Assembly: GCA_044892525.1 (NCBI GenBank)
Contig: CM097885.1
Coordinates: 242,420,001-242,484,000, forward strand
DNA: 64,000 nucleotides
Direction of reading: 5' to 3'
Source: Schmidtea polychroa
Lineage: Eukaryota
Below the pieces are notes generated by a model, which was given only the letters and a program-made list of their open reading frames with translations, made no database searches and was not told the DNA's origin. Shown one piece after another: positions 34,717 through 57,566 of the stretch (position 1 is its first letter; the number at the start of each line of letters is the position of its first letter). Both the position numbers and the translations under genes were made by a program.

Positions 34717-34727
34717 TACGATGAGTC

Positions 34728-35430: not shown

Positions 35431-35763
35431 TATTGTTGGGCTGAGCCGAAGGGTAACTGGGAAATCAGGTTAAACTTAACTAAAATAAAATAAAAAAATT
35501 AAAATAAATAGATTGACGAAAAAAATAAAATAGAATATAAGAAAAAGCAATAATTAGAAAATAAGAATTAAAACAAAAAATATAAAAATAAGAACAATTA
35601 AATAGGACAATAGAATGACGAAAAATAACGTAAAATGTAGCAGATAACAAAGAAATTAAGGAAAATAAATAAAAACACAATAAAAATAAAGAAAATAGGA
35701 AGAAATAACTCAAAAACAAGAAAAATAAATTAAATTAATAAAATAAGGCGGTACTCAATTCTG

Positions 35764-35851
35764 ATTGGTCCGCATAAACGAAAAATACCTATATAAGTAA
35801 ACCGCAAACTCACTATAGTCAATGTTAAAACCAAACCAATTACAGGTAAGA
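35764..35851 (+). promoter_or_regulatory. Putative LTR promoter and first splice donor
   Basis: ATTGG (reverse CCAAT) at 35764, TATATAA at 35790, CAG|GTAAGA donor at 35846 (second CAG|GTAC at 35903 after a 25-bp duplication). Function inferred. Confidence 0.55.
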
Positions 35852-37901: not shown

Positions 37902-38645
37902 ATGTTGCCAAGCTCGAAGCCGTCGCTCAAACCCTGTTTCTCCTGTGCCGACAAAAACACCGTAATCCGAGAATTACAGGCCCAGATCGGTCGATATAGA
38001 AAGAAGATCGACGATCTGGAAGGTACATGGTTTAGCCCAGTACAAATGAAGGAGGTACAAAAGAAATTGTACCACAGCGAGCATTGTCGCGATGCTTTGA
38101 TAAGCGAAAGTAGAGCTCAGCGTAGCCTAATCAAAGAGCAGTCCGAAGCTTTACATAAAGTTTACGTTCAAGCCGCGACAACCCGGAAGATCGTTGGTAT
38201 CCCGATTAAAGAAGCGGACAATATCTTCCCCGTCCACCATGAACCTTCATTTAGTTCATCACCCTTATCAAAAAGATCTTGTCGTGAATGCGTGGAAGCC
38301 GACCTCTCCCCCAGGCCAACGGACGTACCTACTCCCGCCACCGGCAAGGTATTGCCATCAACCACGACGTCCTCAGAAATCTTGTCGGCCAACCCTTCGA
38401 AACCTAAACGTCGCCAATTATCCAGAGCGGAGCGTAAGAAGCGTCAACGTGAACGAGCAATCGTCAAACAATGGGAACTATCTTCCAACCACCCAAGTAC
38501 TTCGAATGATTCCCCCGTAACGATCGATCTAACTGTAGGGATCCCAGGGCGAATCATGTCTGCCGCTGGTGTGACGTGGGAGGAGAATGCCTCCGAGTTT
38601 TTTGATCTGGATGAACTATTGGCGGATGCAGAATGGGAGAAGTGA
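37902..38645 (+). CDS. LTR-encoded ORF (247 aa from ATG; 253 aa in track): CxxC + coiled coil, basic NLS-like tract, acidic/aromatic C-terminus
   Basis: Open in both LTRs; preceded by polypyrimidine acceptor TTGTTTTTTCTTTGTTACAG (AG at 37891-37892); followed by AATAAA at 38782 and a GT-rich tract. Confidence 0.75.
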   Translation: MLPSSKPSLKPCFSCADKNTVIRELQAQIGRYRKKIDDLEGTWFSPVQMKEVQKKLYHSEHCRDALISESRAQRSLIKEQSEALHKVYVQAATTRKIVGIPIKEADNIFPVHHEPSFSSSPLSKRSCRECVEADLSPRPTDVPTPATGKVLPSTTTSSEILSANPSKPKRRQLSRAERKKRQRERAIVKQWELSSNHPSTSNDSPVTIDLTVGIPGRIMSAAGVTWEENASEFFDLDELLADAEWEK

Positions 38646-39236
38646 GAATCGCAACACAATACAACCGTGCAGAGTGTTAATGGACAAATAAACTATCATG
38701 ACTCCTTTTCCTCTTAATCCATTTTCCACTAAGTGTACTCGTTATATAGTGCCATAATTATCTAGTGTATTATGATAATAGAATAAAGAAATTTGTGGGT
38801 TATTTCTTGTGGTTGTTTTGATTTAAATAGTTGCTAGAAAGGTTCAGAGTAGTGTTCACAAAGTGATTCATAAAGCGAGAGTAAATTTTGAGTTCGAGAG
38901 GCAATAGTCAATTTTGTGTCGAATTATGGGACAGGGTAGAGAGAGAATCTGATGGGGTAAACAGACGTAAGTCCTTCCATCGGCAGTCAGAAAGGGAAGT
39001 CGAGGCCTCAGTAAGGAGTAGTCCTAAGGTAGGGGCTCACCTGCTTACTGGAGTCTCGCCTGCATAGCACATTTCCAACGTGAAGCAATTCGCGGGTGCT
39101 ATGTTGGAGGGTAAGTTGTGCGGGGTCCTGCTCCGGGTTGACACGGGCGTATGTAGCGTGATGATATGGGCACGCATCCCCTAGACAAAGACGTAGATTG
39201 AGCAGAGTCAACCGAGCGCTACCCCAGCATAATTTT

Positions 39237-39254
39237 TGGGGGCTCAGCCGGGAT
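39237..39254 (+). promoter_or_regulatory. Primer-binding site, tRNA-Pro type
   Basis: TGGGGGCTCAGCCGGGAT matches the classical tRNA-Pro PBS TGGGGGCTCGTCCGGGAT at 16/18; lies 7 nt after the LTR end. Confidence 0.85.
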
Positions 39255-39521: not shown

Positions 39522-40007
39522 ATGACGGAATTCGCAGAACAGATGCAACAATTAATTAATTTCATTAATATAGAAAACGACCCTATTAGAACACTCATAC
39601 AAAAAAGAAAGCGAATCAACAGCATTCTACTCCAAGCAATCGGACACACACCAGTCGTACCTAATCACGTGTTATTGGCCGCAGGTTTAAGCCACTCAGA
39701 TGAAAAGATAAATCACGAAACAGTATATCAATGGTACCTAAAACGACTAAAAAACCCGGCCCTAAATCTAGAATACGAGCGAATAAAAGATCAACTACAT
39801 ACAATATCAGAGGCAATCGAACAAAAGATACAAGAGAAACTCACCAAATTACGAACCTGTCTGTCTTGCAATCTTCGCCCTATACGCATACTATTCTTAC
39901 CTTGTGGACACCTCAGTCATTGTGAAGAATGCGTGAAAGATCTGAAACGATGTACAATATGTAAAAATGGGATAAAAGAAACCCATATGGTTTATTATGG
40001 TGATTAA
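39522..40007 (+). CDS. IAP-type C-terminal RING (C3HC4) protein without BIR domains
   Basis: C-x2-C-x11-C-x-H-x3-C-x2-C-x6-C-x2-C at the extreme C-terminus (CLSC..LFLPCGHLSHCEEC..CTIC), the spacing of cIAP/XIAP-class RINGs; strong acceptor TTTTTTCTTTTCGCAATAG two nt before the ATG. Confidence 0.85.
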   Translation: MTEFAEQMQQLINFINIENDPIRTLIQKRKRINSILLQAIGHTPVVPNHVLLAAGLSHSDEKINHETVYQWYLKRLKNPALNLEYERIKDQLHTISEAIEQKIQEKLTKLRTCLSCNLRPIRILFLPCGHLSHCEECVKDLKRCTICKNGIKETHMVYYGD

Positions 40008-40572
40008 AACGACTAACCAGATGCAGTGACGTATATGCGCATTAAATTGATAAAAGACCTTTGAATACGAATATATGTACTTTTAAGTGTGAAGTAACTT
40101 TAATGTTTAATTTTAGTCTCAGGATAAAAAAAAATTTTTTTTTTGTTATGAATTAGATATTTTATCTCTTTTAATTACATCTTTGTTTATGAGATCGAAT
40201 GAAGAAGAATAAAACTAACGTGGAATTAGTCCCAATATAGGATATAAGAGTATAAACCGAGCCACCTTCGGGCGGTACGTTCTATCATAAGACAAACCAA
40301 TTGGGAGGGGATAACTGATCAACCCAAGTAAGAAGCGTAGGGCGGGGTACCACCGCAAATGATGAGAAGTTTCTACGACATGACTGATCACCATGCCAAT
40401 GTAGAAATGGATCATCGCGATCGTCGTGCGTTTTGAGCAAGGGGGGAAAGGGGAAACACTCTCAAGCGGTAAAGATTAAGTCGACAAATTAAAAGTAGAC
40501 AGAGAAAATGGTAATCTTGAGTAAAAGAGGAAAAGAGAAGTAGAATCATGCAGAGTGAGGAATATTAAAGCC

Positions 40573-40870
40573 GAGCTGTTAAATAGTCCAGCCGGTCAAG
40601 GAAAATGAAAACTGAGCTGTGAAAAGTCCAGCCAGTTCGGAGATATTGAGACCGAGTTGTTGAATAGTCCAACCGGTCAGAAGGAAGAAGATTGAGCTGT
40701 TGAATAGTGCCAGCCAGTCGTAAGATCGAGTTGTTGAATAGTCCAACCGATCAGAAGGAAGAAGATTGAGCTGTTGAATAGTGCCAGCCAGTCGTAAGAT
40801 CGAGTTGTTGAATAGTCCAACCGATCAGAAGGAAGAAGATTGAGCTGTTGAATAGTGCCAGCCAGTCGTA
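40573..40870 (+). repeat. Leader tandem array: 8 subunits of 34-41 bp forming a 74-bp higher-order repeat
   Basis: Core GAG(C/T)TGTTGAATAGT(G)CCA(G/A)CC starts at 40573, 40614, 40654, 40694, 40728, 40768, 40802, 40842. Confidence 0.92.
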
Positions 40871-41707
40871 AAGGCCTAGAAAAGCGAGAAATAGCAGTTA
40901 AGCTACAATGAGATAATATTTAAATTAATAGCGAAATGGAATATTAAAGCTAGCTAGAAACAAATTGAATGTAATTACGAAATTTGAGTTTAGAGAGGAA
41001 ATAAACGAGCTCGTGGAAAAGATGATGGATTATAGTGAAAGAGGGAGGGGAAAAAGGAAATGAATTAAAGAGATAATGGATAATAACGAATAGGTGAAAT
41101 GATGATAATGAGTAGAAGAGGAAAGTAACTAACTAATTAAAGGGATCCCAGTGAAGTAGAGAAACTCTACGGAATATTTTTTTGGTTGAACCGGGAAAAT
41201 ATATTTTTATTGGTTCCAGAGTAGAACCGAGTGAGATAATAGTAAATACGAAAAGTAAAATAGCGACAACAGCGCAAAAGGAATAGGAAAACGAAAGGGG
41301 GTAATAAGCAGAGACCGACAACGACCTATTTATACTATAATTGATAAAGATAGATAATTATTATGACTTTATAGATAATTGTTACTACCCCATATAGATA
41401 ATTTAAAATCGACAAAAAATATGGGCTGATGGGAAATTATAACCCGCGGAAAAGATTTCACAAAAGATAGGGGAAAAACAAACAGAAACCTAAAAGGTGT
41501 CTGTGTTTGAATGTTGCAGAAAGAATGATGAAGTCGTGTAAGCAGATGCAACACGAGATCATTCTTTCATTTTAGATATCAAATCAAGCCAGCCAATCAA
41601 GCCAATCCAGAACCTGCACAAAAGGAATTCGAGGAAATCGACAATCGACCAAGAATAAATCCATTCAGAACCCGCACCGAGAAACACAGCAACCGGAAGA
41701 CTCCAGA

Positions 41708-42825
41708 ATGGAAGAAGATACAGATAGCGACATCTCCAACTTCGAACGAATCACCGATATATTCAACCTCATAGTATTAGCAGCCATCTGTCAAGGACTA
41801 GTAAATCTCCTCAGAATCGCAGTAGCAGACTCATACCGAACAATTTACGAAGGAAACTTCATCAGAACCCAATCCACCCAATTCAGTAGCCGCTAATTAC
41901 AAGGAAGCGTAAGAAAAGAATCACGGATAAACCCCATCTCAGATCATCGAGTAAGTCAGGCGACGTATTATTTTCAGGAGACGAATTACAACAACTCAAA
42001 AGAGGACGATCTATTAAACATCAAAGAGGAATATCACAAGGAGCAAGAAGAACCAATCAAGTACCCATATTTGACCAAGAAAATCCCGGATATACCCCTA
42101 GTCGATCTCGAAGCAGAGAAAGTCTGTCCGATATCACTAATAGTTTAGCAACGTCAACCGAAGAATTATCAGCCCAAAGTTTAGTCACATCGTTAGATAA
42201 TTTAAAAGAAACAGACGAATCTAGAACACCAATCATGACGAATGTCGTAAAAACCGACGAGTATAAAGAGAAGTTCAGAGGAGAACCGTTCAATGGAAAT
42301 GCAAACAAGTTAGCAACGTTTATAACTAATTTTGAAGTTTATATCACGGTGTGTGGATGGACACCCGAAGCAATTAGCAAAAGGATGCCGTTGTTTTTGT
42401 GCGATAGCGCATTAGAAGTATATTTAGAAGCTAAAGAGAGAGATACGAAATTAGAGAAGTGGGAAGATATCAAAACATTCTTGAAGAAAACCTTCGGAGC
42501 CAGTAAGCCAATCAACCAGGCGTTGGGCGAACTAGCAAATAGGAAACAAAGAGCAAACGAATCGATAACATTATATGCCAGTGAATTACGGAGATTAGCG
42601 AAGAAAGCAATGAATGGAAAATTACCCGAGGAAAATTTGATCGGCTATTTCATAGAAGGATTACGCCGAGAAGAAGTAAGAGCCTCAGTAGGTTGTCAAA
42701 TGTGCAAAACGTTAGAGGAAGCCATAGATTGGGCTACAAGATGCGAGCTCCACCTTCCAGCTCAAATGAATATTATGCAAGAAGATGGGAGGAGAGCGAC
42801 AGCAACAATCAGGAACCGAAAATGA
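41708..42825 (+). CDS. gag: Gag N-terminal region and capsid domain (5' part disrupted)
   Basis: FNGNANKLATFITNFE..W..F..RKQRANESITLYASELRRLA..FIEGL fits a Ty3/gypsy capsid; the capsid frame is open from 41890, and an upstream ATG ORF at 41708-41896 is in another frame. Confidence 0.85.
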
Positions 42826-44807
42826 ACCAATTTATACCAGGAGCGCATCAAATTTTCAAACCACCACAAGGACGATCAAATGGGAATAATGGTAATCGTA
42901 ACAACCTGAATAATGAGAACAATTTTAATAATCGACGAAATTTGAACGATAACAAGCAATGCCGAACATGCGGTAAACCAGGACACTGGGACAGAGATTG
43001 TTATAGAAATGCAAATTGTAATCGTTGCGGACGGCGTGGACATACGGAAAATGTATGCCAATTGAGAGGTTGTTTTAACTGTGGTCAGCCAGGTCACATC
43101 TCCAGAGACTGCCGAGAAAGGGGCCAACCACAACGACCACCACAGCGAAATACTAATTACATGTCGAATCCGCAACGACAAAGTAACCCTAGTGAAGGAA
43201 AACAAATGAACGTTATGCAGGAAATCTCACAAATGAAACAGATGATGCAACAAATGATGAGACCAAGACAAGAACCAGCACCACAACAAACCCAGAATAT
43301 ACGTATGATGAGGAGTACCGAAAATCTCAACAGTTACGAAGTACATCAACATGTACAAGAATGGCAAAGACTACAGGCCGAGGAAGAGAGGATAAAACAA
43401 GAACGCAACCAACAACGACAAGAACAACCATTGCGAATAAATATGATGAAGTTAGTAAAAGACATGAAAAGCCAGTACTGTTACAATTACGGGAAAAACC
43501 CAAGGGTAGTACCCATGACTGAACCAGAAAAGGTAAAAGAAACAACAACGGAAAGGAAAACAGAGAATTCAACCACGATCCTAAAAGGGAACCAGAGAAT
43601 TCAGAAAATATTCTGGAAAAAGATAAAAGATAAAATAGAAAAGAAACATGAAGAAACGGAAATAAGAATAAAAGAGGAAAACAACCAAAACAAGGAGCAA
43701 ATCAGTCAGCTAAACCACCAAATGCTACAAGAATTGGAATCAGAAGAAACAACGATATTCGAAAGAAGGAAACTAAAGCGAGTACCACGGATGAGGAATC
43801 TGCGAATCAACATGATGAAAAGGACAAAAGATGCGACATCGTCAGACGAAGAGGTAGACTATGTGAGCAGTTTGGGTGGAGAAATACTACAGCTAAACGA
43901 AACTAGGGAACCTCCAAAGGGGGAAATCAAAGAGGAAGAAAGCGAAAGCGAGATAACCAGTGAAAGTGAAGACGAGGATATCGAAATAAAGTTGAGAAAA
44001 GCGAGGGAGGAAGCGATAAAACAAGTAGCTGAAATACTCCCGGTGGTAGTGAGAAACCAAGAGTTCATCGATGTAATACCATTCAGGCGATTCGTACAAA
44101 AAGTGATGAAATTGGAAAGAAACGAGAAAGATTTAATACCAAGCGAAGAAAAGTTGATAATAAAAAAGTATATGGAAAAAATGAAGCAGGTCGATACCAC
44201 TCGATATGTAATAAAGATCGGAACGAGTAAAGGACTTGAGAGAATATGGATTAAAAACACAGTCACCGACGAACTTTTCGATTGGATACGAGAACACTTA
44301 GGTAGCTCGAGGAAAACGGAGTACCTATACCAATATCAAGGAGAGCAAGTTAAACCAGATATGCACTTAGTAGACGCACTGATCTGGCCAGGAGAAACGC
44401 AAATACTAAAGTTGCACAAAGAAAAACAACCAGCCAACCTTTACGATTGGGCTAAAGATGCCAAGGCAGAATATGATTTTAATATCAAATTGAAATTAGA
44501 ACAAATAAAACAATGTACTCTGAGACGAAACCTGGACAAGCTGATCAAACAAATTCAAGAACAAGTAGAAGACAACTGGGATTTACTCATCACCAGACGA
44601 GCCCCAGCCATATACGAACTAATGAGCCGATTGCGAGATACAGAATTGCTCCGAATGAGTGATTGGAGAACCATAAATTTGATTCACAAATATGGAAGGT
44701 TAAAAGAAACCCAGCCACAGAAGTTAGAAATAACCATATGGTTACCGAACGAAGAGAAACGACGAATAAAAAAAAGGTACGTAGCGAAAGTAGTGATGGT
44801 ATGGTAG
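42693..44807 (+). CDS. Gag continuation: three CCHC zinc knuckles, Q/E-rich coiled region, ubiquitin-like domain 1 and start of domain 2
   Basis: CRTCGKPGHWDRDC (42960), CNRCGRRGHTENVC (43017), CFNCGQPGHISRDC (43071); joins the capsid frame by a -1 shift near 42790. Confidence 0.88.
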   Translation: MSNVQNVRGSHRLGYKMRAPPSSSNEYYARRWEESDSNNQEPKMNQFIPGAHQIFKPPQGRSNGNNGNRNNLNNENNFNNRRNLNDNKQCRTCGKPGHWDRDCYRNANCNRCGRRGHTENVCQLRGCFNCGQPGHISRDCRERGQPQRPPQRNTNYMSNPQRQSNPSEGKQMNVMQEISQMKQMMQQMMRPRQEPAPQQTQNIRMMRSTENLNSYEVHQHVQEWQRLQAEEERIKQERNQQRQEQPLRINMMKLVKDMKSQYCYNYGKNPRVVPMTEPEKVKETTTERKTENSTTILKGNQRIQKIFWKKIKDKIEKKHEETEIRIKEENNQNKEQISQLNHQMLQELESEETTIFERRKLKRVPRMRNLRINMMKRTKDATSSDEEVDYVSSLGGEILQLNETREPPKGEIKEEESESEITSESEDEDIEIKLRKAREEAIKQVAEILPVVVRNQEFIDVIPFRRFVQKVMKLERNEKDLIPSEEKLIIKKYMEKMKQVDTTRYVIKIGTSKGLERIWIKNTVTDELFDWIREHLGSSRKTEYLYQYQGEQVKPDMHLVDALIWPGETQILKLHKEKQPANLYDWAKDAKAEYDFNIKLKLEQIKQCTLRRNLDKLIKQIQEQVEDNWDLLITRRAPAIYELMSRLRDTELLRMSDWRTINLIHKYGRLKETQPQKLEITIWLPNEEKRRIKKRYVAKVVMVW

Positions 44808-46030
44808 ATGATGTAGTCATGATGTACGATAAAATAATATTACGAGCGGAGGACGACACCTCGTTGAGCGAAATGGGTATGTGGGACGATCATCAGATAA
44901 TCAGGATAGTACCAATGGATGAATTTCGAACAAGAGACGTAACATATCAAAAAGAAATACGAGACCGGATGAAAACGTTATATCAAAAATCTACAGAAAT
45001 AATTGAAATTCACCAACAATGGTTAAAAGAAAAGGAACTACAAGGAAAAATCACGAAACTAAGTACCAGATCCTGCAGACGAACCCCATGGGAAAGAGTG
45101 TGGAATACAGAAAATAAGGAATGGGAAATCCGGAAAGGAATCTTCGTAGAAACAGACATTGGTGAGACAGGAAGTGAATCGGAGGAAGAAGAAGAGGAAC
45201 CTCCAGAATATGAAGAGGAAGCAAGGGGACAGACATCAGATGACGAAAGCGAGACGGACGTCACGTCAGAAAGCGAAAATGAAGCGAGACATATTCATGC
45301 AATGCGGAAAAAGGAACGTGAATATGCCGATATGGACGGCGAGGAAGCGATAAAAGCAAGAGAACGAGAAGAGAAAGAAAGATATAAACAATTAGGCGAT
45401 ATCTTAGCAATGGGAGCAAAAAATCAAAAACGCCAAGTAGTAGCATTGGCTAACATCATCTTAAAGACATCAGAGAACATCCACAATCTGAGAGGAATGG
45501 GAAAGGCAATAGAGGAATACCGGCAATATAATGAATGGTATCCAGAACAGCTAGAACAAATTATTCGAAAATGGAGAAATCAGGAATGGGCACAAGACAC
45601 CCAGGAGAGGTATCACATCCGAATCAAGTATCCGGACAAGAGCATCGAGGAACTAGAGGTGCATCCAACAACAAAGATTAGAGAATTAAAAAAGAAATTA
45701 GCATATGAAACTCCATTCCATCTGCAACTATTCGGAAAATCACTAGACGATAATGCAGACGTCGGAATAACACCCATGAGATTGGAAGAGACGAATGTGT
45801 TAACAATGGCGGAAACGTTGGGAAAACCGTTGAAAAGGAAAAGCAAAATTAATAAACCAACAAAAGGCAGTTTGAGTACTCCAAGTCCGAACAAAGCACC
45901 AAGTAAATCTAATGAAACTGAAGAAGTCGAAGAGATTATCCTCGAAGATAGCGACGATGAACCAGGAGAAAGATCACCGCTATTAGTGAGATGGCCGACA
46001 GGAGCCGAAATCATCAGATGGATCATGTAA
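44663..46030 (+). CDS. Polyprotein continuation: rest of Ubl2, acidic PPEY region, ubiquitin-like domain 3
   Basis: IRIKYPDKSIEELEVHPTTKIRELKKKL..LFGKSLDD aligns by eye to ubiquitin [36 protein letters not shown]; -1 shift from the previous ORF near 44770-44800. Confidence 0.75.
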   Translation: MENHKFDSQIWKVKRNPATEVRNNHMVTERRETTNKKKVRSESSDGMVDDVVMMYDKIILRAEDDTSLSEMGMWDDHQIIRIVPMDEFRTRDVTYQKEIRDRMKTLYQKSTEIIEIHQQWLKEKELQGKITKLSTRSCRRTPWERVWNTENKEWEIRKGIFVETDIGETGSESEEEEEEPPEYEEEARGQTSDDESETDVTSESENEARHIHAMRKKEREYADMDGEEAIKAREREEKERYKQLGDILAMGAKNQKRQVVALANIILKTSENIHNLRGMGKAIEEYRQYNEWYPEQLEQIIRKWRNQEWAQDTQERYHIRIKYPDKSIEELEVHPTTKIRELKKKLAYETPFHLQLFGKSLDDNADVGITPMRLEETNVLTMAETLGKPLKRKSKINKPTKGSLSTPSPNKAPSKSNETEEVEEIILEDSDDEPGERSPLLVRWPTGAEIIRWIM

Positions 46031-47470
46031 CGGAGGTACATATACGATCCGAGGCGAGGTGATATCAGGAGTAGTAGTGATTGAGTCCTATACGGTTGAA
46101 TTAAAAGAATACGAAGCGCAATTCGACGCAAATAATTATCAAATGAAGACCAACCCAGCATGTAGAGCTACGGAAAATGTATGCAAGACAGGAGTATCAA
46201 CTATAATCTATGAAGCTAATACCCAAAAATGCCGACTTCAACTGTTAAAAAGTGCTTTGTTTAACGAAGTAAAAGGAGAAATTTACGAGAACGAAAATGA
46301 CGAGGATGGAAACGAAAGAGTGAGAATGCGAAATGGAAAACCAATGCCACCATCTCCCAGAGAAAAAAGACTCTCAACGCAGAAAACACCAACAGCACTA
46401 ATCACCGACGATCCAGATCTAGGTATGAGATTTATCAATGAGAAAGAAACCACCAAATGCGACAGTATAGTATATAAAACCAATTACGCGGGTATCTATA
46501 TGTCGAGACAAATAATCGATAGAGCAGTGGGAAAGATAGCAACGGAGGACGTAAAACTATACTTATATGCAAATAATAAAATGGACTTTCTGTTTCATCG
46601 TGGCCAGACGACGTTGCAAAAAGTATATTACGATCTTATACAAAACGATTGTTCATTGAATAAAGAAATACTGAAAACAAAGCTGGCTATTGCGATAACG
46701 CACCCAGATAACACGATGCCATCACTCCCCTTACCAGATGGACATTTTGGTAGAATGGTAGGAGAAGTGATGTACACATACCAGTGTACCAAGACGTATG
46801 CACGAATGCCCGAAAAATCCACACTACCCGAAAAGAAATGTGCAAATGAATTAGAGATTCGTTATAAAGGACAAAATCGATTCGTCCAACCAGTCACCAG
46901 AATTATGAACCCAGTAGGCTTCTACCCAAATCTATTTAACTGTTCTAATGCGTACGGACCATTGTATGAAAGACCAGATGGAAAATGGGTAATGTTACCA
47001 GTAAAGTCTGTAACTGAGGAACCCAAAAAGTTCGGATTAATAGAACTCGCCACAGAGTTGGATTTCAAACCTATAGACGTGTCAAACGGTGGTATGTATT
47101 CGGCAGAAGATTTAGAAACGGCTCGGCTTAACGTATTATTCCCAGCAAGGCGAGAATCTATATTGTCGAACATGGTCACAATAACTGGGGGAACGAATTA
47201 CCAATCAGGCCCAAACTATGAACTACTGCTGTCACCAGACCATTTTCAACAAGCAACCTCAAATATGATGAAAGCAATGTGGGGAAGATTCTTAGTTTTT
47301 GGACAAATGATGGCCGGAATATTGGGGATCATACTCATAATTCAGATAGTCAGAGTAATACTAACACAAATGTTAGCTTGTTTTGATATATACAAGCGAG
47401 AAAAGAAAGTGAATTGGAAAATGATAGTAGGATTTCTACCATTCCTAGCTAAAACTATGGTGTTACATGG
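45990..47470 (+). CDS. env: Chuvirus-like (class III, gB-related) fusion glycoprotein domain, N-terminally truncated, in frame with pol
   Basis: Collinear motifs GSCNGGTY..GVVV, C..TENVC..STIIY, KLYLYANNKMDFL, LIQNDCSLNKEIL, GEVMYTYQC, CANEL..RFVQPVTRI, GGMYSAEDL..VLFPA and WGRFLVFGQMMAGILGIILII(TM), as recalled for chuvirus-type glycoproteins. Confidence 0.82.
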
Positions 47471-49805
47471 TCACTCAAAGGACATTCATCGAATAAAACG
47501 ATTGATTAAAATATTAACGAAGATTAAAGGAACCGACGAAGAAGTAGGCAGACGATTCCGGAAAGTAATGTACGATGAAGCAACAAGACGACAACTGAAA
47601 AAGAATAAGCCAAAATTTTTGGACCGATTCAGAAGTCAATCATCTAACAGCGATAGTGACGACGATGATAACGGGAACGATAAATGTCTATATCCAAACA
47701 GAAACCCAAACGAAAAACCAATGGAAACAGCACCATATTGGGAAAAGGAAAAGACAAACCCCTGGATCGCCAATGGAAGCTATATACCACCGGATATCGT
47801 GGGACCACAAGCCGCTTTGACCATGACACAAAATATGTATCCGCAATTACCGAGTCAACCCGGTATGCATTATATGCCAACGCGACGTACCAAAAGCGTA
47901 GATCAAGCAGATGACGTACGAACAATAGCAGCAATGAATTTACCTGGAGGTCCAGCAGTGACAGTCATGATTCAAATCAATGGTAAAGAAACCAATGCTA
48001 TGATAGACACAGGAGCTAATGTATCAGCGATAGCGATTAATCAAATTCCCAGTAAGCACTGGAAAGATATCGAATCAACAACAATCCACATCATAGCATG
48101 TAGTAAAGAAACAGTGGACGTGGTCGGAAGATGGTGGACTACATTGAGATACCAGGACAACGAAATTGAAACGTATTTGGCAGTAATACCAAAACTTAGC
48201 GTACCATGCATAATCGGAACGGATTTGATGCCAGAATTATTAAAAGAAGTGGTAATTGACTTAACAACCATGTGCTTAAAAGACAGAACAGGCAGAATAT
48301 GCAAAATGAATGCCATAATCAGATGTCCAGAGAAAATTGTGGTACCAGCAAAATCGCAGATGATTTGTCAAATAAAAGTGGATACGGGTATGGAAGGAGA
48401 AGTTATCTTTGAGCCAAGCAAATCATTCGAAAAGCGACGAGAGTTACCCCTCGCCAGAGAAATAATAACAATAAACCCAGAAGGGGTGATACCGATCAAC
48501 ATCACAAATTTTGAAGAGGAAGACAAAATCATCTACGAAAATGAAAGATTGGGAAAATTAACTCCAATGATCAATATCGAATTACCAAAAGTGACCAACG
48601 AGATGACCAAAGACGACGAATTATGGACAATCGACAGTACATTGTTAACGGATGCTGAAAGGAGAAAATTGCACCGATTATTAGTAGAATATAAAGATAT
48701 ATTCGCCATCTCAGATTTAGATTTGGGTACATGCGATGTTACCCTACATGCAATACCACTCATAGACGAAACCCCAATTGCATTGAGACCATACAAGCTA
48801 GCAGAAATGCAAAAAGAAATAGCCGAAGCAGAAGTACAAAAAATGTTAGACGCAAAAGTGATCGAACCAAGTTGCTCACCTTGGCAATTCCCAGTGGTCA
48901 TGGTGAAAAAGAAAGATGGCACCCAACGATTCTGTATCGATTATCGAAAGTTAAACGCAGTAACCAAGAGAGATACCTATCCATTGCCGGACATCAATGA
49001 AATGTTACTCATGTTGCAAGAGGCAGCATATTTTACTTCTTTAGATTTAAAAAGTGGATACTGGCAGATTAAAGTCAAAGATGAGGACAAAGAGAAAACA
49101 GCTTTCACGTTGGGACGAGATCTATATCAGTTCAGAAAAATGCCATTCGGACTGACCAACGCACCAGCATCATTTCAAAGGTGTATGAACTTTGTCACTC
49201 ATGGAATCAAACAATGTATGGTATATATTGATGATTTGTTAATCTATTCAGCGACATTTGAACAACATCTGGAGGATATCCGAAACGTATTTATTAGATT
49301 AAGACAATGGAAACTCAAGCTCAAACCCTCAAAATGCGATTGGGCAAAGGAAAAAGTCACGTTTTTAGGACACATAGTGTCAGCTAAAGGAAAGGAGCCA
49401 GATCCAAGAAACATTGAGAAAATAAAAACATGTCCAGCACCGAAAACTGTCACCCAAGTTCAGGAATTTCTAGGATTATGCGGATACTACCGCAAATTTA
49501 TCAAAAATTATGCAGGAATTGCAAAACCAATCCAGGAATTAGTAAAGAAAGACATTTCGTTCATTTGGGAAAAGGAACAACAAGAGGCGTTTGAAACGCT
49601 GAGAGACAAACTAATCGAAGCACCAATCCTCGTACACCCAGATTTCAAGAAGCCATTTCTATTAGCAACGGATGCAAGCGGGTACGCGGCAGGCGCGATT
49701 CTGGGACAATTAGACGACGAAGGTAAAGAGAGAGTAATCGGGTATTACAGTCGAACATTCAAAAAGCACGAGAAGAACTATTCGGTAACAGAACGAGAAG
49801 CATAG
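46059..49805 (+). CDS. pol: Env-PR-RT-RNaseH(5' part) continuous ORF ending at a premature TAG
   Basis: Protease IDTGAN at 48003-48020; RT PWQFPVVMVKKKDG..RFCIDYRKLN, MPFGLTNAPASFQR, YIDD at 49224; RNaseH LATDASG..ERE; TAG at 49803 replaces L of EREALA. Confidence 0.97.
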   Translation: MISGVVVIESYTVELKEYEAQFDANNYQMKTNPACRATENVCKTGVSTIIYEANTQKCRLQLLKSALFNEVKGEIYENENDEDGNERVRMRNGKPMPPSPREKRLSTQKTPTALITDDPDLGMRFINEKETTKCDSIVYKTNYAGIYMSRQIIDRAVGKIATEDVKLYLYANNKMDFLFHRGQTTLQKVYYDLIQNDCSLNKEILKTKLAIAITHPDNTMPSLPLPDGHFGRMVGEVMYTYQCTKTYARMPEKSTLPEKKCANELEIRYKGQNRFVQPVTRIMNPVGFYPNLFNCSNAYGPLYERPDGKWVMLPVKSVTEEPKKFGLIELATELDFKPIDVSNGGMYSAEDLETARLNVLFPARRESILSNMVTITGGTNYQSGPNYELLLSPDHFQQATSNMMKAMWGRFLVFGQMMAGILGIILIIQIVRVILTQMLACFDIYKREKKVNWKMIVGFLPFLAKTMVLHGHSKDIHRIKRLIKILTKIKGTDEEVGRRFRKVMYDEATRRQLKKNKPKFLDRFRSQSSNSDSDDDDNGNDKCLYPNRNPNEKPMETAPYWEKEKTNPWIANGSYIPPDIVGPQAALTMTQNMYPQLPSQPGMHYMPTRRTKSVDQADDVRTIAAMNLPGGPAVTVMIQINGKETNAMIDTGANVSAIAINQIPSKHWKDIESTTIHIIACSKETVDVVGRWWTTLRYQDNEIETYLAVIPKLSVPCIIGTDLMPELLKEVVIDLTTMCLKDRTGRICKMNAIIRCPEKIVVPAKSQMICQIKVDTGMEGEVIFEPSKSFEKRRELPLAREIITINPEGVIPINITNFEEEDKIIYENERLGKLTPMINIELPKVTNEMTKDDELWTIDSTLLTDAERRKLHRLLVEYKDIFAISDLDLGTCDVTLHAIPLIDETPIALRPYKLAEMQKEIAEAEVQKMLDAKVIEPSCSPWQFPVVMVKKKDGTQRFCIDYRKLNAVTKRDTYPLPDINEMLLMLQEAAYFTSLDLKSGYWQIKVKDEDKEKTAFTLGRDLYQFRKMPFGLTNAPASFQRCMNFVTHGIKQCMVYIDDLLIYSATFEQHLEDIRNVFIRLRQWKLKLKPSKCDWAKEKVTFLGHIVSAKGKEPDPRNIEKIKTCPAPKTVTQVQEFLGLCGYYRKFIKNYAGIAKPIQELVKKDISFIWEKEQQEAFETLRDKLIEAPILVHPDFKKPFLLATDASGYAAGAILGQLDDEGKERVIGYYSRTFKKHEKNYSVTEREA

Positions 49806-50950
49806 GCTATAATACAAGCTATCAAACACTTCCGATATTTACTATGGGGACATGAGATATGTATAACCACAGATCACCAACCATTAGTGTGGTTAGGGCA
49901 ACATAAAGAAGCGTCCAGTAGACTGATGAGATGGGCCATGCAATTGCAAGAATACTCCCCATTTATAAAATTCAAAGCGGGAAGAGCAAATGCCAACGCC
50001 GATTGTATGTCAAGATTTATTTTTCCAGATTTGGTGGATTCAGAAATGCAACGCATATGCTTAATAGTAGCGGAAGATTTAGATTTCTGTCAATTGCGAA
50101 AGGACCAACAAGAGGACGCAGAATTAAAACAAATTATCGATTATGTAAAAACCGGAAAGACGGAGGTATATGCGAAAGATCAAAAATTAAAAGAACATAT
50201 GGATAAACACCGACACCGATATATTATAGAGAAAGATTGGTTGCTGATAATGGATGGAGAAAAACGATTAATGTGTATACCGGAAAACCGACGAAAAGAG
50301 TTACTAACGCAATATCACGATGGGAGATTGGGAGGACATATGTCATCAAAAAAGACGTTAGCAAGAATGAAACAGAAATATTTTTGGCCAACCCTAACGG
50401 AAGACGTAACCGAATGGGTGAAAAACTGCCTAACCTGTGCAACAAGGAAAAACACTGGATCGAAATGGAAAGCACCTTTGACGCCAATGCCGGTACCAAT
50501 AGAGCCGATGACAATGATATCAATGGACGTAGTTGGTCCATTACCGGAATCGGATAGAGGAAACGTTTATATTTTAGTGATTACAGACTTTCTCACGAAA
50601 TTTCCAGAAGCATTCGCGATGCCAGACCAAAAAGCTAAAACAATCGCAAAAATCTTAGTCGAAGAGATATGTTGCCGTTACGGAACACCGAAGCAAATCT
50701 TGACTGATCAAGGAACTAATTTTATGAGTGAGATAATGAGCTAAGTAACAAACTATTTCAAAATCGCAAAACTAAGAACATCTCCATATCACCCTCAAAC
50801 CAATGGGATGACGGAAAGATTTAATGGAACACTTATACAAATGTTATCAAACTACGTCGATCGTCACCAACGAGATTGGGATGAATACATAAATATATGT
50901 CTTATGGCTTACAGAATGTCAATTCATGCATCAACGAAAATGAGCCCATG
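49806..50950 (+). CDS. pol: RNaseH 3' part and integrase HHCC + DDE core (internal TAA at 50742, small deletion near 50949)
   Basis: TDHQPL; H-x6-H..C-x2-C (HDGRLGGH..CLTC); MDVVGP, TDQGTNF, GMTERFN; the frame continues past the stop into TSPYHPQTNG. Confidence 0.95.
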
Positions 50951-53900
50951 AGAGAGTGCAACATGCCAATGGACCTGGAATACCAACCACCGATATCGCA
51001 ATACATGGAGATAGATGATTATGTTACGAAATTCAAGGAAAGAATGCAGGAGATTTGGGAAACTGCGGGATTAAATATCAAGTTCTACCAGGAAAGTTAT
51101 AAAGATTTACACGATCGAAAGAAAAACGTGAAGCAACATACGTTTCAAACAGGCGATTGGGTGATGATCGAGACCCCAGAATTAATTCCCGGAACCACAA
51201 GAAAGTTACAACGGAACGGAAAAGGGCCATATGAGATCTTGTTCGTAGGCGAAACCAATGTAAGAGTAAAATTGGTAAATAATCCATTCACCAGGCCAAT
51301 ATACGTAAACGTGGCACGATGCAAATCAATTCCAAAAACAGCCACCAGTCAACCAGAAGGCCGTACATTAACCACACGTTCGCAAACCTACAGAATGAAC
51401 ATGATGCAACAACTCGCAGAACCTATCACTGGACGATTGGGCATACAACCATCGGAAGCCGAAAAAATCGTACGAGAGGTAAAGATAAAATTACCCGGAT
51501 GGGCAAAAGATCGATTAGATTTCGAAATATTAGGAGGATTATTGACGATGATCGAAAACTATGCAAACAGAGAGAGGACACATCCGTTATTGCGAGTAGT
51601 TAAAAGTCAATGGCCAATATTATTTACAATAACAGATCATTATGGAGACACACCATTACACAAACTCATGAAAGTAGGTAACAACGAGCAAATACTAGAA
51701 ACAATAGAAGTATTTCACGACTGCAAGCGATCAACAGAACAAGAAAACAACCAAGGCTACACACCATTAATGATAGCAGCAAACAGAGGCAAAACAAAAG
51801 ACATTATAACCGCATTACTTGATACTGGATCAAAAATAACTACACAAGACCACGAGCGGAAAAACGCACTACATCATGCTATCGAAGGGAAAAGTACCGA
51901 GGCGTTCACGTTGTTGATGGAACTACTATCATATGAGGACAATCGAGAAGTCGGAAACATGTATGATGGATTATTAACAGCGATCAAAGAGAAACTGACA
52001 ACAATTACCGGAGTATTAATCACTTGGAGAAACCCAATTAAAAATAATTATATGGTCAACGTAAACGAAGCATTCACGAGAGGAGAGAACACGCTTATGA
52101 GAGAAGCTATGAAAGGACATCATTTATTCGAAATCCCGAATCAATTACTAGAACGAGGAATAACCTTCACAAATCATAAGGATGAGCAGTTATTAAAAAA
52201 GCGAATTGACACATTCGAAAAATCAATATTCCAATTCATTACTCAGGTACGAAATAAATATTGGGAAACGGTAAGTGTGTTATACATGATGGACACGATG
52301 AACAACATCCGCGAGAATTACCTAGATATTATCCAAATACTTACCGCAGAGGAACGAATCAATAATCCAACCGGAAAGAAAATGAAAATAAGGCATGGGA
52401 AATCAAGAGAACCAAAGTCGCAAACGAACCAAACGATCGCAAATAAAGTCATCGAAACAAAATCAATGAGTGTAGATCAAAGAGCAATAATATGCAAAGC
52501 GAAAGAAGTGTTCTTTGAGGAAATGCTAGAGCTCTCAGATGAAATAATATTATCAGAAATAATAAAAACCGTGCATACATATGCAAGAGATCAAACAACG
52601 AATTTGGACATCGGTAAAATCAAAACCTTCTTGCCCCGAGCATTTACGATGGTAACGAAGGATTTCAGAACACCACTACAACAGGCAATATTAGCAGCGA
52701 AAGAAAATAGAGCAATAACGATCATGAGAATCCTTAGGGATATGGGCGAGGAAACCAACACGAAAAATGAACAAGGCGAAACCGCCATGATGTATGCAGC
52801 TATAACGAAAATACACCCAAAAACCCTCCACATACTACATCAATCAGGATCGAGACTAGACGAAAAGTCAAACGAAGGGAACTCCACTATGGACTGGGCA
52901 ACCATACAGCCTAATTTAGAAATGATCAGATTTATTTGCAAAAATGCGACAAGAGAAGAAGTTGAAAATATATGCAAAAACACAGCTCAATTTCAATGGA
53001 ATACGGTACGGAAAAATCTAGAAGCAATGAAATTATTATTAACATGGAGAGTACCACAAAATAATAAATATGCGATAAATGTAAACGAATTCTACGAAAA
53101 CGGAGAAAACGCGATGGTAAAGAATACATTAACTAAAGGGGGGACACCAAAAATTATTTTAATAGTATTAAACAGAGAAGACCTCAAATTCACGCAAAAT
53201 CAGAACGAGCAACAACGAATTGGAAAACATCGTCGTATTCAATTGAGAGAATTAGTCAAAGAATGGAATAGAAAGAGACATGCTGCAACGGGTAGAAAAG
53301 AGTTTGAATTCGAAGCAAAATTAGCAAGGAACAGAGTGTTAACAGCATATCGCAGATTATTGAACGATATAAATGTCGAGGACGACATTTTAAACGACAG
53401 CGGGGGAGATAAACACGATGACAATGACGGAAAAGGCCGAAAGGAGGATAAAGGGAAAAGAGAACCGGAAGAGGATAAACCGGAAAACAAGGATTCGGGT
53501 ACGAGAAGAGAGGGAAACAGCCCGGGAACCAAGACCAAAGAGGAGGAAAAACCGAATAATGGAAAACAGAGGGTATGCCTACCTTTCACTAACAAAGAAA
53601 TAGAAACAAATATGATCATAATGATAATCATGCTAACCATGATAGAGTTAGTAACAGCTCATGGAGGGACGAGAACGATAAAAGAAACCAAAGAAGCGGA
53701 GAATCAAGATAGCAAAGAGGAAGAACTAAAACAAGAAAAGAAAAAGCAAGCACAAGAGCAGCAGTGGGATTTAAAGGAAGAATGGGGCCTAAAGAAAAGG
53801 TGCATACTAGGAAGATGTATGTCTAGAGCGTATCAGAGATTAGTACTGATAAATGAGGACACAGAACCGATAACAGAAGTAAGAATACAAGAAGTATACC

Positions 53901-54613
53901 GAAATCGAGACGGGAAGAGAATAACGAACGTTAAAGGAAAAGAGGTGCACCTAGGAAAAGGTGGTGAAGTAGTAATAACGCAGCTCCAACCAAGAAAAGA
54001 ACACAAAGTCTGTATTTCAAGATTAGGACCAGGTGAGAGATGCCATCAATATGTGACGCAGCAGCAGCCCCCGAAAGAATACACGGTTTGTATCTGGAGG
54101 AACGAATCAAAAAGGGAATGCCGACGATACCCGGGGAAAAGAGGGAAGAAAAGAAAAAACCACGACGAAAAGGACGAAGGAGGAAAGCACAAGAAAACCG
54201 GCGAGGAAGCTCAGGACAACTATGTTTCGGAGGAAGAGATGGGAAAAATACAAAAGATGGCAAAGGAGGGTATGAACGAGGAAATAGCAAGAATACGAGA
54301 GATGATGAAAGGAAATGGCAAAAGAGGAAACGAGAAAAGTACAGAAGCGATATCAACATTAACAAACAAGGAAAAACCAGAGAGTATAAGCGTGAAGCAG
54401 ATGATGTGGATCAGCGGGATAATAATAACAGGGGCATTCCTAATCATAACGGGGGGAACAATAAAAATAATTAAAGATAAACGACATCGCGGAGAACTAG
54501 AGATGACCCGAATCAGAAATTTCCAACATCGAGTGAAACGACCAAGTGATATCAAACAAGAACAGTGGGTGGAGGCCTGGAACGCTCAGCGCCCTCCAAA
54601 CTCACGTATATAG
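50897..54613 (+). CDS. Integrase C-terminus (GPY) fused to two ankyrin-repeat modules, a signal-peptide-like segment, an FN3-like domain and a C-terminal TM
   Basis: KGPYEI; GDTPLH, GYTPLMIAA, KNALHHA (51632-52160); RTPLQQA, GETAMMYAA, GNSTMDWA (52655-53180); MIIMIIMLTMIELVTA (53612); VVITQLQPRKEHKVCI; MMWISGIIITGAFLIITGGTI (54401). Confidence 0.88.
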   Translation: MSYGLQNVNSCINENEPMRECNMPMDLEYQPPISQYMEIDDYVTKFKERMQEIWETAGLNIKFYQESYKDLHDRKKNVKQHTFQTGDWVMIETPELIPGTTRKLQRNGKGPYEILFVGETNVRVKLVNNPFTRPIYVNVARCKSIPKTATSQPEGRTLTTRSQTYRMNMMQQLAEPITGRLGIQPSEAEKIVREVKIKLPGWAKDRLDFEILGGLLTMIENYANRERTHPLLRVVKSQWPILFTITDHYGDTPLHKLMKVGNNEQILETIEVFHDCKRSTEQENNQGYTPLMIAANRGKTKDIITALLDTGSKITTQDHERKNALHHAIEGKSTEAFTLLMELLSYEDNREVGNMYDGLLTAIKEKLTTITGVLITWRNPIKNNYMVNVNEAFTRGENTLMREAMKGHHLFEIPNQLLERGITFTNHKDEQLLKKRIDTFEKSIFQFITQVRNKYWETVSVLYMMDTMNNIRENYLDIIQILTAEERINNPTGKKMKIRHGKSREPKSQTNQTIANKVIETKSMSVDQRAIICKAKEVFFEEMLELSDEIILSEIIKTVHTYARDQTTNLDIGKIKTFLPRAFTMVTKDFRTPLQQAILAAKENRAITIMRILRDMGEETNTKNEQGETAMMYAAITKIHPKTLHILHQSGSRLDEKSNEGNSTMDWATIQPNLEMIRFICKNATREEVENICKNTAQFQWNTVRKNLEAMKLLLTWRVPQNNKYAINVNEFYENGENAMVKNTLTKGGTPKIILIVLNREDLKFTQNQNEQQRIGKHRRIQLRELVKEWNRKRHAATGRKEFEFEAKLARNRVLTAYRRLLNDINVEDDILNDSGGDKHDDNDGKGRKEDKGKREPEEDKPENKDSGTRREGNSPGTKTKEEEKPNNGKQRVCLPFTNKEIETNMIIMIIMLTMIELVTAHGGTRTIKETKEAENQDSKEEELKQEKKKQAQEQQWDLKEEWGLKKRCILGRCMSRAYQRLVLINEDTEPITEVRIQEVYRNRDGKRITNVKGKEVHLGKGGEVVITQLQPRKEHKVCISRLGPGERCHQYVTQQQPPKEYTVCIWRNESKRECRRYPGKRGKKRKNHDEKDEGGKHKKTGEEAQDNYVSEEEMGKIQKMAKEGMNEEIARIREMMKGNGKRGNEKSTEAISTLTNKEKPESISVKQMMWISGIIITGAFLIITGGTIKIIKDKRHRGELEMTRIRNFQHRVKRPSDIKQEQWVEAWNAQRPPNSRI

Positions 54614-54773
54614 AAAGGAATATGACTGTATATAATTGTAAAAAGTAAGTATATCTTATGTATATAACAGTACTATATCTTTATATAAGCGCGGTATCAA
54701 TATTATACAATAACGGGAATCATAAAATAAAATTAAATTTAGATAAGAGTTGAAAAGTGTATATAAATTAAGA

Positions 54774-55133
54774 ATGGAGCAAGGAAATAACGAAATGAAC
54801 CACAACACAGTAACCGAAGAATTATGGAAGCAACAATGTGCCGTATTAGCACAATTAGTGTCTAATTTGCAAGAACAAGGATTGACGATGCAAAAGAACC
54901 TAATCGAGAGTATGAACAGAGGATTTAGTTATTTGAAGATAATTGAAGACCAGAGGTTAAAAATCGAACAAATGCAAAGAGAAATAGAGAGGATAACCCA
55001 ATATAGCCGAAGACAGGAAATCGAATTGGACAGAATGATGGAGGAAGCAGAACAGACAGAAATAGAAGACTGGTCAGAATGGCTTATGAGTAGAGAGGAG
55101 GGCGGACACGAAGCCGACTCTTCCGAACCATAA
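54774..55133 (+). CDS. Accessory coiled-coil ORF A (about 119 aa)
   Basis: ATG at 54774, heptad-like Q/E/L pattern, acidic W-containing C-terminus, same codon style as the polyprotein. Confidence 0.65.
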   Translation: MEQGNNEMNHNTVTEELWKQQCAVLAQLVSNLQEQGLTMQKNLIESMNRGFSYLKIIEDQRLKIEQMQREIERITQYSRRQEIELDRMMEEAEQTEIEDWSEWLMSREEGGHEADSSEP

Positions 55134-55218
55134 ACCAAACCTAGCTTAAAATGTAAATAATTGTAAATAAAATATCGAACCTGTATCGATAAGAACTATA
55201 TGTATATATAATTATAGA

Positions 55219-56607
55219 ATGGATAAACGACAAAGAGAAGAGTTCAGAGAAATTGTCGAACAAGTCCGAAAATCTACAACGATCAGAGTACACAAACATG
55301 TTATGTGCGGAATATGTGAAAAGTTGCTAAAAGAACCCCACCAAACCCTATGTGGATGCAGATTATGTAAGGAATGTATCAGTGAAGCAATAAAGAATAG
55401 ACCACAGTGGTGCCCGGTGTGTAAAGAGACACTAATATCGAGTTTAGAAGACACTAACGAGGATAAAGCCGCAGTGAAAGACATGTTAAACACCAATCTG
55501 GGATGCAAAAATACCCCATGCGAATGGAAAGGAGTAATATGGAAAGTAGTGCAACATATGGGAGAATGTATGTACAGAATCGGCCAGTGTGAAAGGTGCC
55601 ATAAAACCATTCGAGCAAGCGAAGAAAAAGAGCATCAAAGCCAGTGTGAAGAGAGACTAGAAAGATGTAAACATTGTGGAGAAATAGATACGTGGAAAAA
55701 TCTCACCAGCAAACATCACAATGTCCAAGAGGAAAAGGTATGTGCAGAGTTCAGTGGGGAATGCCCGAACGGATGTGAGGAAGGGAGAATAATAAAAATA
55801 GCCCAGCACCTAAAAGAATGTGAGAAGAAAAGAATGATATGTGTACTAGGTAAATGGGGCTGTCAGAAACTACTACACCGAGGAGAGTTACCACATCATT
55901 TAGTAGAAAATGCTTCAACTCACGCAGAAAGGTGGTCGACTGCGCTACAAGAAAGTGAAGAGAAAGTAAAACAAATGGAGATAGAGATAACATCGTTGAA
56001 AGTGTTAGTCAAAGAACTACTAGAAGAAAGAGAAGCGTTCGAAGAAGCCCGAGCTAACATAAAGATGCAAATAAATCGTATAGAAATCAGCAATAATCAG
56101 GCCAAGGTGCTACATCAAAAGATAACTGAGATAAATCTAAATGAAGTAATACCAACAGCACCCTACGTGTGGAAAATAACGGGAGTGAAAGAAAAAATAC
56201 GAAAAGCCAAAACCGGAGAAGAGACAAAAATAACGAGCCCCGCATTCCAGTCTTGGAAAAATGGGTACAAAATGAAAATGAAGATATATCCCAACGGGGA
56301 CGGAACCGGATTAGATACACCCTTTTCGGTTTTCTTTCTTTTATGCAAAGGAGAATACGACGAAATAATAGAATGGCCGTTCCAGGCGAAGATCGACATC
56401 GCACTAATGAATGACCGAAACATCCACGAACAAAGCTTCAAGACAACGGGAAACCAAATGTGTTACCAGAGACCTACGGAAGAAGAAGGATCAGCAACGG
56501 GAGCACCTACGTTCATCCTACAACAAAAAGTAGAGGATATGGCGAGAAATAACACAGTATATATCAAGATGACTGTGAGGAAAGAGGGGAAGGGTAGAAC
56601 GGAGTAA
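55219..56607 (+). CDS. TRAF: Full-length intronless TRAF-family protein (RING - TRAF zinc fingers - coiled coil - MATH)
   Basis: CGICEKLL..CGCRLCKEC..CPVC; repeated C-x2/3-C..H..C fingers; coiled coil; MATH YVWKI..SPAF..GYKMKMKIYPNGDG..KGEYD..WPF..YQRP..G.PTF. Confidence 0.96.
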   Translation: MDKRQREEFREIVEQVRKSTTIRVHKHVMCGICEKLLKEPHQTLCGCRLCKECISEAIKNRPQWCPVCKETLISSLEDTNEDKAAVKDMLNTNLGCKNTPCEWKGVIWKVVQHMGECMYRIGQCERCHKTIRASEEKEHQSQCEERLERCKHCGEIDTWKNLTSKHHNVQEEKVCAEFSGECPNGCEEGRIIKIAQHLKECEKKRMICVLGKWGCQKLLHRGELPHHLVENASTHAERWSTALQESEEKVKQMEIEITSLKVLVKELLEEREAFEEARANIKMQINRIEISNNQAKVLHQKITEINLNEVIPTAPYVWKITGVKEKIRKAKTGEETKITSPAFQSWKNGYKMKMKIYPNGDGTGLDTPFSVFFLLCKGEYDEIIEWPFQAKIDIALMNDRNIHEQSFKTTGNQMCYQRPTEEEGSATGAPTFILQQKVEDMARNNTVYIKMTVRKEGKGRTE

Positions 56608-57544: not shown

Positions 57545-57566
57545 AAAATTAGAAAACGAGAGGAAA

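Follow-up and report, generated by a model that had tools for sequence, protein, structure and literature searches.

A 64,000-nucleotide stretch of the genome of the planarian Schmidtea polychroa (assembly GCA_044892525.1, contig CM097885.1, positions 242,420,001 to 242,484,000; hereafter the window) contains a long terminal repeat (LTR) retroelement with a cargo of host-like regulatory domains, and raises the question of whether these form one coordinated kit or a set of separate effectors, and for whose benefit. A preliminary description had placed a TRAF protein, an IAP-type RING, ankyrin arrays and ubiquitin-like (Ubl) domains in a single retroelement and had proposed that they jointly modulate host death and innate immunity through a TRAF2-cIAP-IkB pathway. 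All four module types do occur in the one element, with one Ubl domain broken. On balance, we favour the reading that this is a young copy of a Burro-class element whose selected modules act as separate accessory effectors, damping host death and innate signalling for the sake of the element's own spread.

A Burro-class element and the selection on its cargo

The element is of the Ty3/gypsy type, spans 28,026 bp of the plus strand (35434-63459) and holds the whole region of the preliminary description, the ends of which (39522 and 56607) are the start codon of a RING open reading frame (ORF) and the stop of a TRAF ORF. The 5' LTR (35434..39229, 3,796 bp) has TG...CA ends, the 3' LTR (59666..63459, 3,794 bp) begins with TG and ends with CA, and a 4-bp target-site duplication, ATAT, borders both (35430-35433 and 63460-63463). 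The insertion is very young, since the two LTRs differ by 11 mismatches and 2 gaps. Along the plus strand the 5' LTR is followed by the RING ORF, gag with zinc knuckles, three Ubl domains, env and protease, and then by reverse transcriptase (RT), RNase H, integrase, two ankyrin arrays, a hydrophobic tail, TRAF, coiled-coil-like ORFs and the 3' LTR. With a length of ~30 kb, multi-kb LTRs and a target-site duplication, env placed between gag and pol, and Ubl, ankyrin, TRAF and (in sibling copies) BCL-2-like cargo, this is a Burro-class element, that is, an env-bearing, high-copy planarian Ty3/gypsy retroelement.

PMC6431247 describes Burro/GYPSM1 of Schmidtea mediterranea as carrying MATH_TRAF, BIR, ankyrin, BCL2-like and Ubi2/SUMO-like cargo, with env between gag and pol, and already proposes that the cargo meddles with apoptosis and ubiquitination. 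The cargo of the window element is real and under selection, its carrier is of a known kind, and the general hypothesis is in print. As described there, Burro1/GYPSM1 and Burro-2 to -4 share with the window family a size of ~28-30 kb, long LTRs, a giant polyprotein, env between gag and pol, and Ubl/SUMO-like, BCL-2-like, ankyrin and TRAF/MATH cargo. Unlike Burro1 proper, which is marked by MATH in the polyprotein and a BIR-containing IAP, the window family has neither; its TRAF is a separate downstream ORF, and a BIR-less RING ORF lies upstream of gag. The family may correspond to Burro-2, -3 or -4. A Burro-like element of Dugesia tigrina similarly combines a polyprotein without MATH with TRAF/MATH on an accessory ORF, but that ORF is described as upstream (PMC6431247), whereas the window TRAF lies downstream of pol. 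Two things are new, a BIR-less RING situated upstream of gag and estimates of selection module by module, neither of which was found described in the literature searched, with the proviso that the supplements of Lee et al. 2026 and Grohme 2018 may describe the family; the different gene order is a variant feature.

Two further families in the same genome place this cargo in context. The second is also of high copy number (at least 150 scored BIR matches) and has MATH in the polyprotein, ankyrins, and a TRAF followed by a 393-aa BIR+RING IAP, a layout which matches published Burro1 and includes the two marks of Burro1/GYPSM1 proper that the window family lacks; its Ubl, BCL-2-like, ankyrin and TRAF modules are homologous to those of the window family. 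The third, more distant, has one Ubl, a BCL-2-like domain and env; a scan across the whole length of one copy gave no match to TRAF, ankyrin or IAP. Three families with different subsets of the modules fit piecemeal capture.

The genome search covered 781 Mb in four large contigs and returned at least 92 TRAF copies (scored of 2,100 candidates) and at least 150 copies of the RING N-terminus (scored of 700 candidates). Selection was estimated codon by codon, as the ratio of nonsynonymous to synonymous divergence (dN/dS), across the window copy and 34 siblings, using variants seen in at least 2 copies; two truncated copies (L019-021, L025-027) and the protease segment (5 copies covered) were left out of the counts. 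The ratio is 0.15 for the RING N-terminus and 0.06 for the RING itself, 0.03, 0.06 and 0.01 for the first, second and third Ubl domains (on a par with core genes), 0.08 for the BCL-2-like domain (31 copies), 0.08 for each of the ankyrin arrays and 0.11-0.16 for the parts of TRAF. Among core genes it is 0.01 for RT and 0.02 for both env and gag, and 0.01-0.03 over gag capsid, env, RT, RNase H and integrase; the strong constraint on env is what one would expect if the element is retrovirus-like and equipped with accessory genes. In shifted frames the ratio, where it could be computed, was 1.1-12, and non-coding controls gave 0.40-2.08 in 11 of 12 readings, the other being 0.29 with a wide interval.

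These substitution patterns plainly point to purifying selection on all cargo modules. A comparison of dN/dS across copies had been put forward in the preliminary description as one way to expose neutral cargo, and the values of 0.01-0.16 in every cargo module rule out neutral evolution. That the cargo is host DNA hitch-hiking neutrally can accordingly be all but dismissed: the partial decay of the window copy is in line with it, but no module has a ratio anywhere near 1 (upper bootstrap limits no higher than 0.34), controls are near or above 1, and homologous modules are still retained between families whose Ubl regions are only ~33% identical. The stand-alone ORFs are well preserved, with the RING N-terminus intact in 35/35 copies, the RING in 34/35 and the TRAF parts in 32-35/35, counts which are biased upward because copies with intact-looking TRAF and RING were chosen, and which come from copies that are not independent. 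Both ORFs are intact in the window copy, the polyprotein of which is otherwise broken near 42800, 44770, 46010, 49805 and 50744.

The cargo modules and the question of a single complex

The RING ORF (39522..40007, plus strand) encodes a stand-alone protein of 161 aa with a helical N-terminus of no known family and a C-terminal IAP/IDOL-type RING; the first cysteine of the protein is at residue 113. Its best PDB matches are cIAP2 (7e-11) and cIAP1 (2e-10), followed by XIAP, ML-IAP and MYLIP, and a Foldseek search with the structural model agrees with a cIAP-like RING class, matching the RING only. On these comparisons IAP ancestry is likely, with MYLIP/IDOL scoring close behind. Membership of the IAP (BIRC) family requires a BIR domain beside the C-terminal cIAP/XIAP-type RING, and this is absent: Pfam detects no BIR in the ORF, and the BIR zinc motif was found neither in the element nor in any of 60 sibling stretches (0/60), while the control loci were positive in 14/14 cases. 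A degenerate BIR or UBA domain in the N-terminus was considered and found unsupported; the model is of low confidence (pLDDT 65), Pfam returns nothing credible and Foldseek reaches no further than the RING. Pairwise BLAST gives no alignment between this N-terminus and the linker of the second family's IAP, and hhalign extends weakly into that linker. Between subfamilies the N-terminus varies at 51 of 100 sites. The RING is 34% identical over 41 residues to that of the BIR-bearing second family. The Burro1 protein B-IAP, known here from passages citing it (PMC13465017), likewise supplies a retroelement-borne IAP-type RING, but it has BIR and RING together, whereas the 161-aa window ORF has no BIR and sits at the opposite end of its element.

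The missing BIR bears on the pathway proposed in the preliminary description. The mammalian TRAF2/3-cIAP1/2 complex and the IkB proteins are the reference systems for such a pathway; BIR1 is the part that docks cIAP on TRAF2, and BIR domains bind caspases. A coordinated mimic of TRAF2, cIAP and IkB, working as one complex on TNFR/NF-kB signalling, has in its favour that all four classes of module co-occur. Moreover, a RING ORF lies on the same strand, 10-21 kb upstream, at no fewer than 68 of the 91 sibling TRAF loci listed (a lower bound, for which 69 hand-picked of 149 sibling RING matches were used), and in the second family TRAF adjoins a full IAP. The window element also shares with the mammalian system the domain order of TRAF and the class of the RING, but has no BIR1 for docking on TRAF. 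Because its IAP-type RING lacks a BIR, a single TRAF-IAP-NF-kB machine is unlikely.

The TRAF itself (55219..56607, plus strand) is a stand-alone, intronless, full-length ORF comprising a C4C4-type RING, zinc fingers, a coiled coil and a TRAF-C/MATH domain, and so has every part expected of the family (Pfam MATH_2 2.5e-24; best PDB match TRAF3 at 4e-25, with TRAF1 and TRAF2 also matched). Where the peptide groove of TRAF3 has Ser-Ser-Ser, the aligned residues of the element protein are Gln-Met-Cys, a further difference from the mammalian system. Three element MATH sequences, one of them from the window family, cluster apart from 29 host TRAFs with support of 96/86 and are ~31% identical to the nearest host TRAF sampled, in a tree with long branches and no outgroup whose host rows are the best 30 of 150 matches, one having been dropped as too short. 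This grouping would fit one old capture. An origin of the host TRAF expansion from the element is unsupported for the 29 host loci in the tree. Planarian TRAF expansion is reported in passages of PMC6109357, and the host family in this genome is large (L143-L172), with many loci clustered on contig C2, and is separate in the tree from the TRAFs of the elements. Positive selection on the TRAF groove was likewise rejected: MATH has 38 variable sites of 154, against 38 of 308 in the comparison, but dS is also higher and dN/dS is unchanged at 0.12, and deeper ancestry through recombination accounts for the excess.

The ankyrin arrays (51557..52204, C-terminal to integrase, and 52502..53284; plus strand; Pfam Ank_2 1.5e-17 and 3.3e-8) are poor candidates for an IkB, which is a free ankyrin protein with an N-terminal DSGxxS degron. 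They are fused to pol, with RT through both arrays in one frame with integrase in 26/30 copies; they contain no match to DSGxxS; and no IkB appears among the best 60 of their 199 PDB matches, a weak test as repeat number drives the score. Pfam found no PRANC or F-box on the ankyrin frame. On the host side, a search of the genome for RHD proteins gave 0 matches, with the control likewise silent, and a TNFR search gave 1 sub-threshold match among 9 candidates, again with a silent control; the passages of PMC11463336 add nothing on planarian TNFR. According to passages of PMC13563047, S. mediterranea has no clear NF-kB homologue, only seven divergent RHD factors, and shows TBK1-dependent TRAF induction. 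The divergent factors would leave a mimic something to act upon, but the lack of a clear homologue argues against it, as do the Ubl domains, which are foreign to a TRAF-cIAP-IkB complex. With no BIR, an altered TRAF groove, ankyrins lacking a degron and lying within the polyprotein, and subsets of modules that differ between families, we regard the single-pathway mimic as very improbable, and this part of the original proposal is not supported.

Three Ubl domains lie on the plus strand between gag and env. The first (44199..44420) and third (45605..45817) are intact; the second (44715..44920) is broken in the window copy by a frame break near 44770 and intact in 34/34 siblings. Whole-ORF Pfam scans gave no Ubl match, and the assignment comes from a joint profile of 8 Ubl repeats from three element families, which matches ubiquitin/ISG15; from the beta-grasp model of the third domain (pLDDT 88.5), for which Foldseek returns ubiquitin, SUMO and ISG15 with TM 0.74-0.89; and from a ubiquitin/SUMO-like Atlas lead of 0.90 for the first and second. 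As none ends in Gly-Gly (absent after the first and third domains of the window and the second of a sibling), these are integral domains rather than conjugatable modifiers.

Downstream of the third Ubl domain, ~1.37 kb present in siblings is missing from the window copy, with the junction of the deletion at 46007..46011. The missing segment encodes a BCL-2-like domain and the env N-terminus, and from gag through the Ubl domains and the BCL-2-like domain to the start of env a single open frame runs in 20/30 sibling copies. The most directly death-related module was thus missed by the preliminary description because it is deleted here, and its presence in siblings strengthens the cell-death reading of the cargo. 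With a profile of four sequences, the best 60 PDB matches are all Bcl-xL/Bcl-2, though weak (best E 0.0055). The GGW of BH2 is invariant, and the BH2 motif is present in 28/30 siblings; the NWGR of BH1 is replaced. Small Bcl-2-family ORFs also occur in repeated copies elsewhere in the genome (L117-L126, L141, L142), some of them near parvovirus- or helicase-like ORFs. No homologue of the Ubl-BCL-2 region was found among 1.84 billion representatives outside the genome, nor of the TRAF or the RING ORF in the libraries searched; that even a TRAF drew a blank reveals how poorly animal proteins are represented in these libraries, and novelty cannot be argued from any of the three results.

Proposed separate effectors and the beneficiary of the cargo

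If the modules do not form one complex, how might they act? The broader part of the original proposal, a kit modulating death and immunity, survives in so far as the cargo is selected and points to ubiquitin signalling and cell death. On the reading we favour, of separate effectors, the BCL-2-like domain would act in mitochondrial death control, and TRAF as a decoy or as a re-targeted adaptor or E3 ubiquitin ligase in host TRAF signalling. Planarian immune genes include TAK1, p38, JNK, XIAP and TRAFs (passages of PMC7958881), and the TAK1/p38/JNK or TBK1 arms documented in planarians are more likely targets for the TRAF than NF-kB. The BIR-less RING may be an E3 that works as a dimer and selects its substrates through the fast-changing N-terminus, or one that partners other IAP RINGs; the ankyrins and Ubl domains would be docking modules made within the polyprotein. 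The modules would have been captured piecemeal over a long time and not as one complex.

A parallel is with large DNA viruses, which carry accessory anti-death genes such as baculovirus iap and poxvirus ankyrin and Bcl-2-fold proteins. Common to both are captured host-like regulators beside replication genes; here, in contrast, the carrier is a retroelement, and part of the cargo lies within the gag-env-pol polyprotein. Among retroelements, those of the Burro class offer the clearest example of accessory genes carried in the style of a virus, and a function has been reported for only the Burro1 BIR+RING protein. The selection found on TRAF, ankyrin, Ubl, BCL-2-like and BIR-less RING modules turns a list of domains into five testable proteins in an animal tractable to RNA interference.

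Several points weigh against our reading. The BIR+RING combination, the sole module with a published anti-death function, is not present in full form in the window family, and a RING without BIR might just as well favour death as prevent it. The BCL-2-like match is weak (E 0.0055; Pfam 0.038 for the window family), and BH3 binding by that domain is doubtful given the replaced BH1 motif. The window copy is broken in gag-pol and has lost the BCL-2-like domain altogether. Purifying selection, for its part, implies that the proteins are of consequence, but it identifies neither their function nor their beneficiary.

In a rival reading, which we judge unlikely, the cargo has little to do with host-cell survival and works instead for the replication cycle of the element itself or in direct counter-defence, for example in budding, in trafficking, in the tethering of integrase, or in ubiquitin-dependent removal of restriction or silencing factors. 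The Ubl domains and ankyrins are polyprotein domains (gag to env start open in 20/30 copies, RT to ankyrins in 26/30), the Ubl ratios are as low as those of core genes, and the RING N-terminus is as variable between subfamilies as a host-facing substrate adaptor might be. Burro elements are also PIWI-silenced (passages of PMC8532177). However, the BCL-2-like domain, the IAP-type RING and TRAF all belong to families that regulate death or stress, and the IAP of a sister family is reported to be anti-apoptotic (passages of PMC13465017).

A beneficiary other than the element is suggested by the precedent of Burro1, in which the BIR+RING protein reportedly shields stem cells against death mediated by caspases (passages of PMC13465017, citing Lee et al. 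2026). That the window family's cargo is kept mainly for its benefit to host stem cells seems to us quite unlikely. In line with mutualism, most copies have kept the stand-alone ORFs (RING and TRAF) intact, as has the otherwise broken copy of the window; but that copy is very young, and intact cargo is expected in it without host selection. Moreover, selection was measured on variants shared among copies and so reflects replicating lineages, for which benefit at the level of the element suffices. The window family also lacks the BIR, and one study finds de-repressed BURRO1 in differentiated intestinal cells (passages of PMC8532177).

In a more specific and speculative alternative, which we consider unlikely, a BIR-less RING E3 replaced the BIR-bearing IAP of Burro1, its N-terminus being a new, fast-changing substrate adaptor. 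It would bring about the degradation of host restriction or death proteins either as a partner of IAP RINGs from the host or Burro1, or in concert with the TRAF of its own element. A gypsy element would then possess an accessory E3 comparable to Vif or Vpu, with different Burro families as competitors or allies in one pathway of stem-cell survival. The high-copy BIR-less family also serves as a natural control to tell whether the protection of stem cells is a trait of Burro elements in general or of Burro1 in particular.

Subfamilies, remaining features and surroundings

The subfamilies are mosaic, with several combinations of RING and MATH types, and recombination is shuffling old cargo alleles. 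Synonymous divergence among copies is 0.67-0.82 for the RING ORF and 0.40 for MATH (56143-56604), as against 0.13-0.17 for gag, env and RT. Tandem copies ~26.2 kb apart occur at C4:46.24-46.29 Mb, C4:69.87-69.91 Mb and C2:177.68-177.73 Mb and are consistent with arrays sharing an LTR. Contigs of four runs presumed to be RNA cover 30, 22, 13 and 4 of 30 element bins; a DNA source is possible, and they were not used as evidence.

Within each LTR an ORF of 266 aa (37845..38645, plus strand, copied at 62075-62875) has an N-terminal hydrophobic stretch and no Pfam match; an ORF of similar length is kept in other subfamilies at a DNA identity of ~67-73%. A probable primer-binding site, possibly of tRNA-Pro-like type, follows the 5' LTR (39237..39254, plus strand); the LTR start (35434-35448) is complementary to it over ~9 bases. 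The genome contains 1,676 occurrences of a 19-mer matching the tRNA-side complement of this site, among them those of a 475-bp tandem array on contig C1 near 130.9 Mb, and ARAGORN found no tRNA at the dispersed loci carrying it in 4/4 tested. In the leader between the RING ORF and gag, a 74-bp tandem repeat (40554-40871) varies in copy number among siblings.

The core of the element, all on the plus strand, consists of a Gag capsid with CCHC zinc knuckles (42235..43115, frame break near 42800); the remnant of a Monjiviricetes-type fusion glycoprotein with a transmembrane stretch, placed between gag and pol as env (46014..47396, Pfam 6e-50); and protease, RT, RNase H and the N-terminal part of integrase (47964..50744), with an in-frame stop at 49803-49805 and the frame ending at 50744. 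The C-terminal part of env, protease and RT share one frame in the window copy. The polyprotein tail (53582..54613, plus strand) matches no Pfam family and has two hydrophobic stretches, one signal-like and one transmembrane-like; with a dN/dS of 0.10, it is a possible second surface protein. Around TRAF, the plus strand carries mostly coiled-coil-like accessory ORFs to which no family was assigned (54774-55133, 56747-57544, 57531-57857, 57979-58743 and 58780-59448). Just upstream of the element lies a Tc1-like DNA transposon (33230-34723) with DDE_3 and HTH domains and terminal inverted repeats, and on the minus strand, at 19197-19949 and 27399-29034, there are an exon of the Tctex-1 family and ORFs encoding a Spin-doc zinc finger, as is typical of hAT-type transposons.

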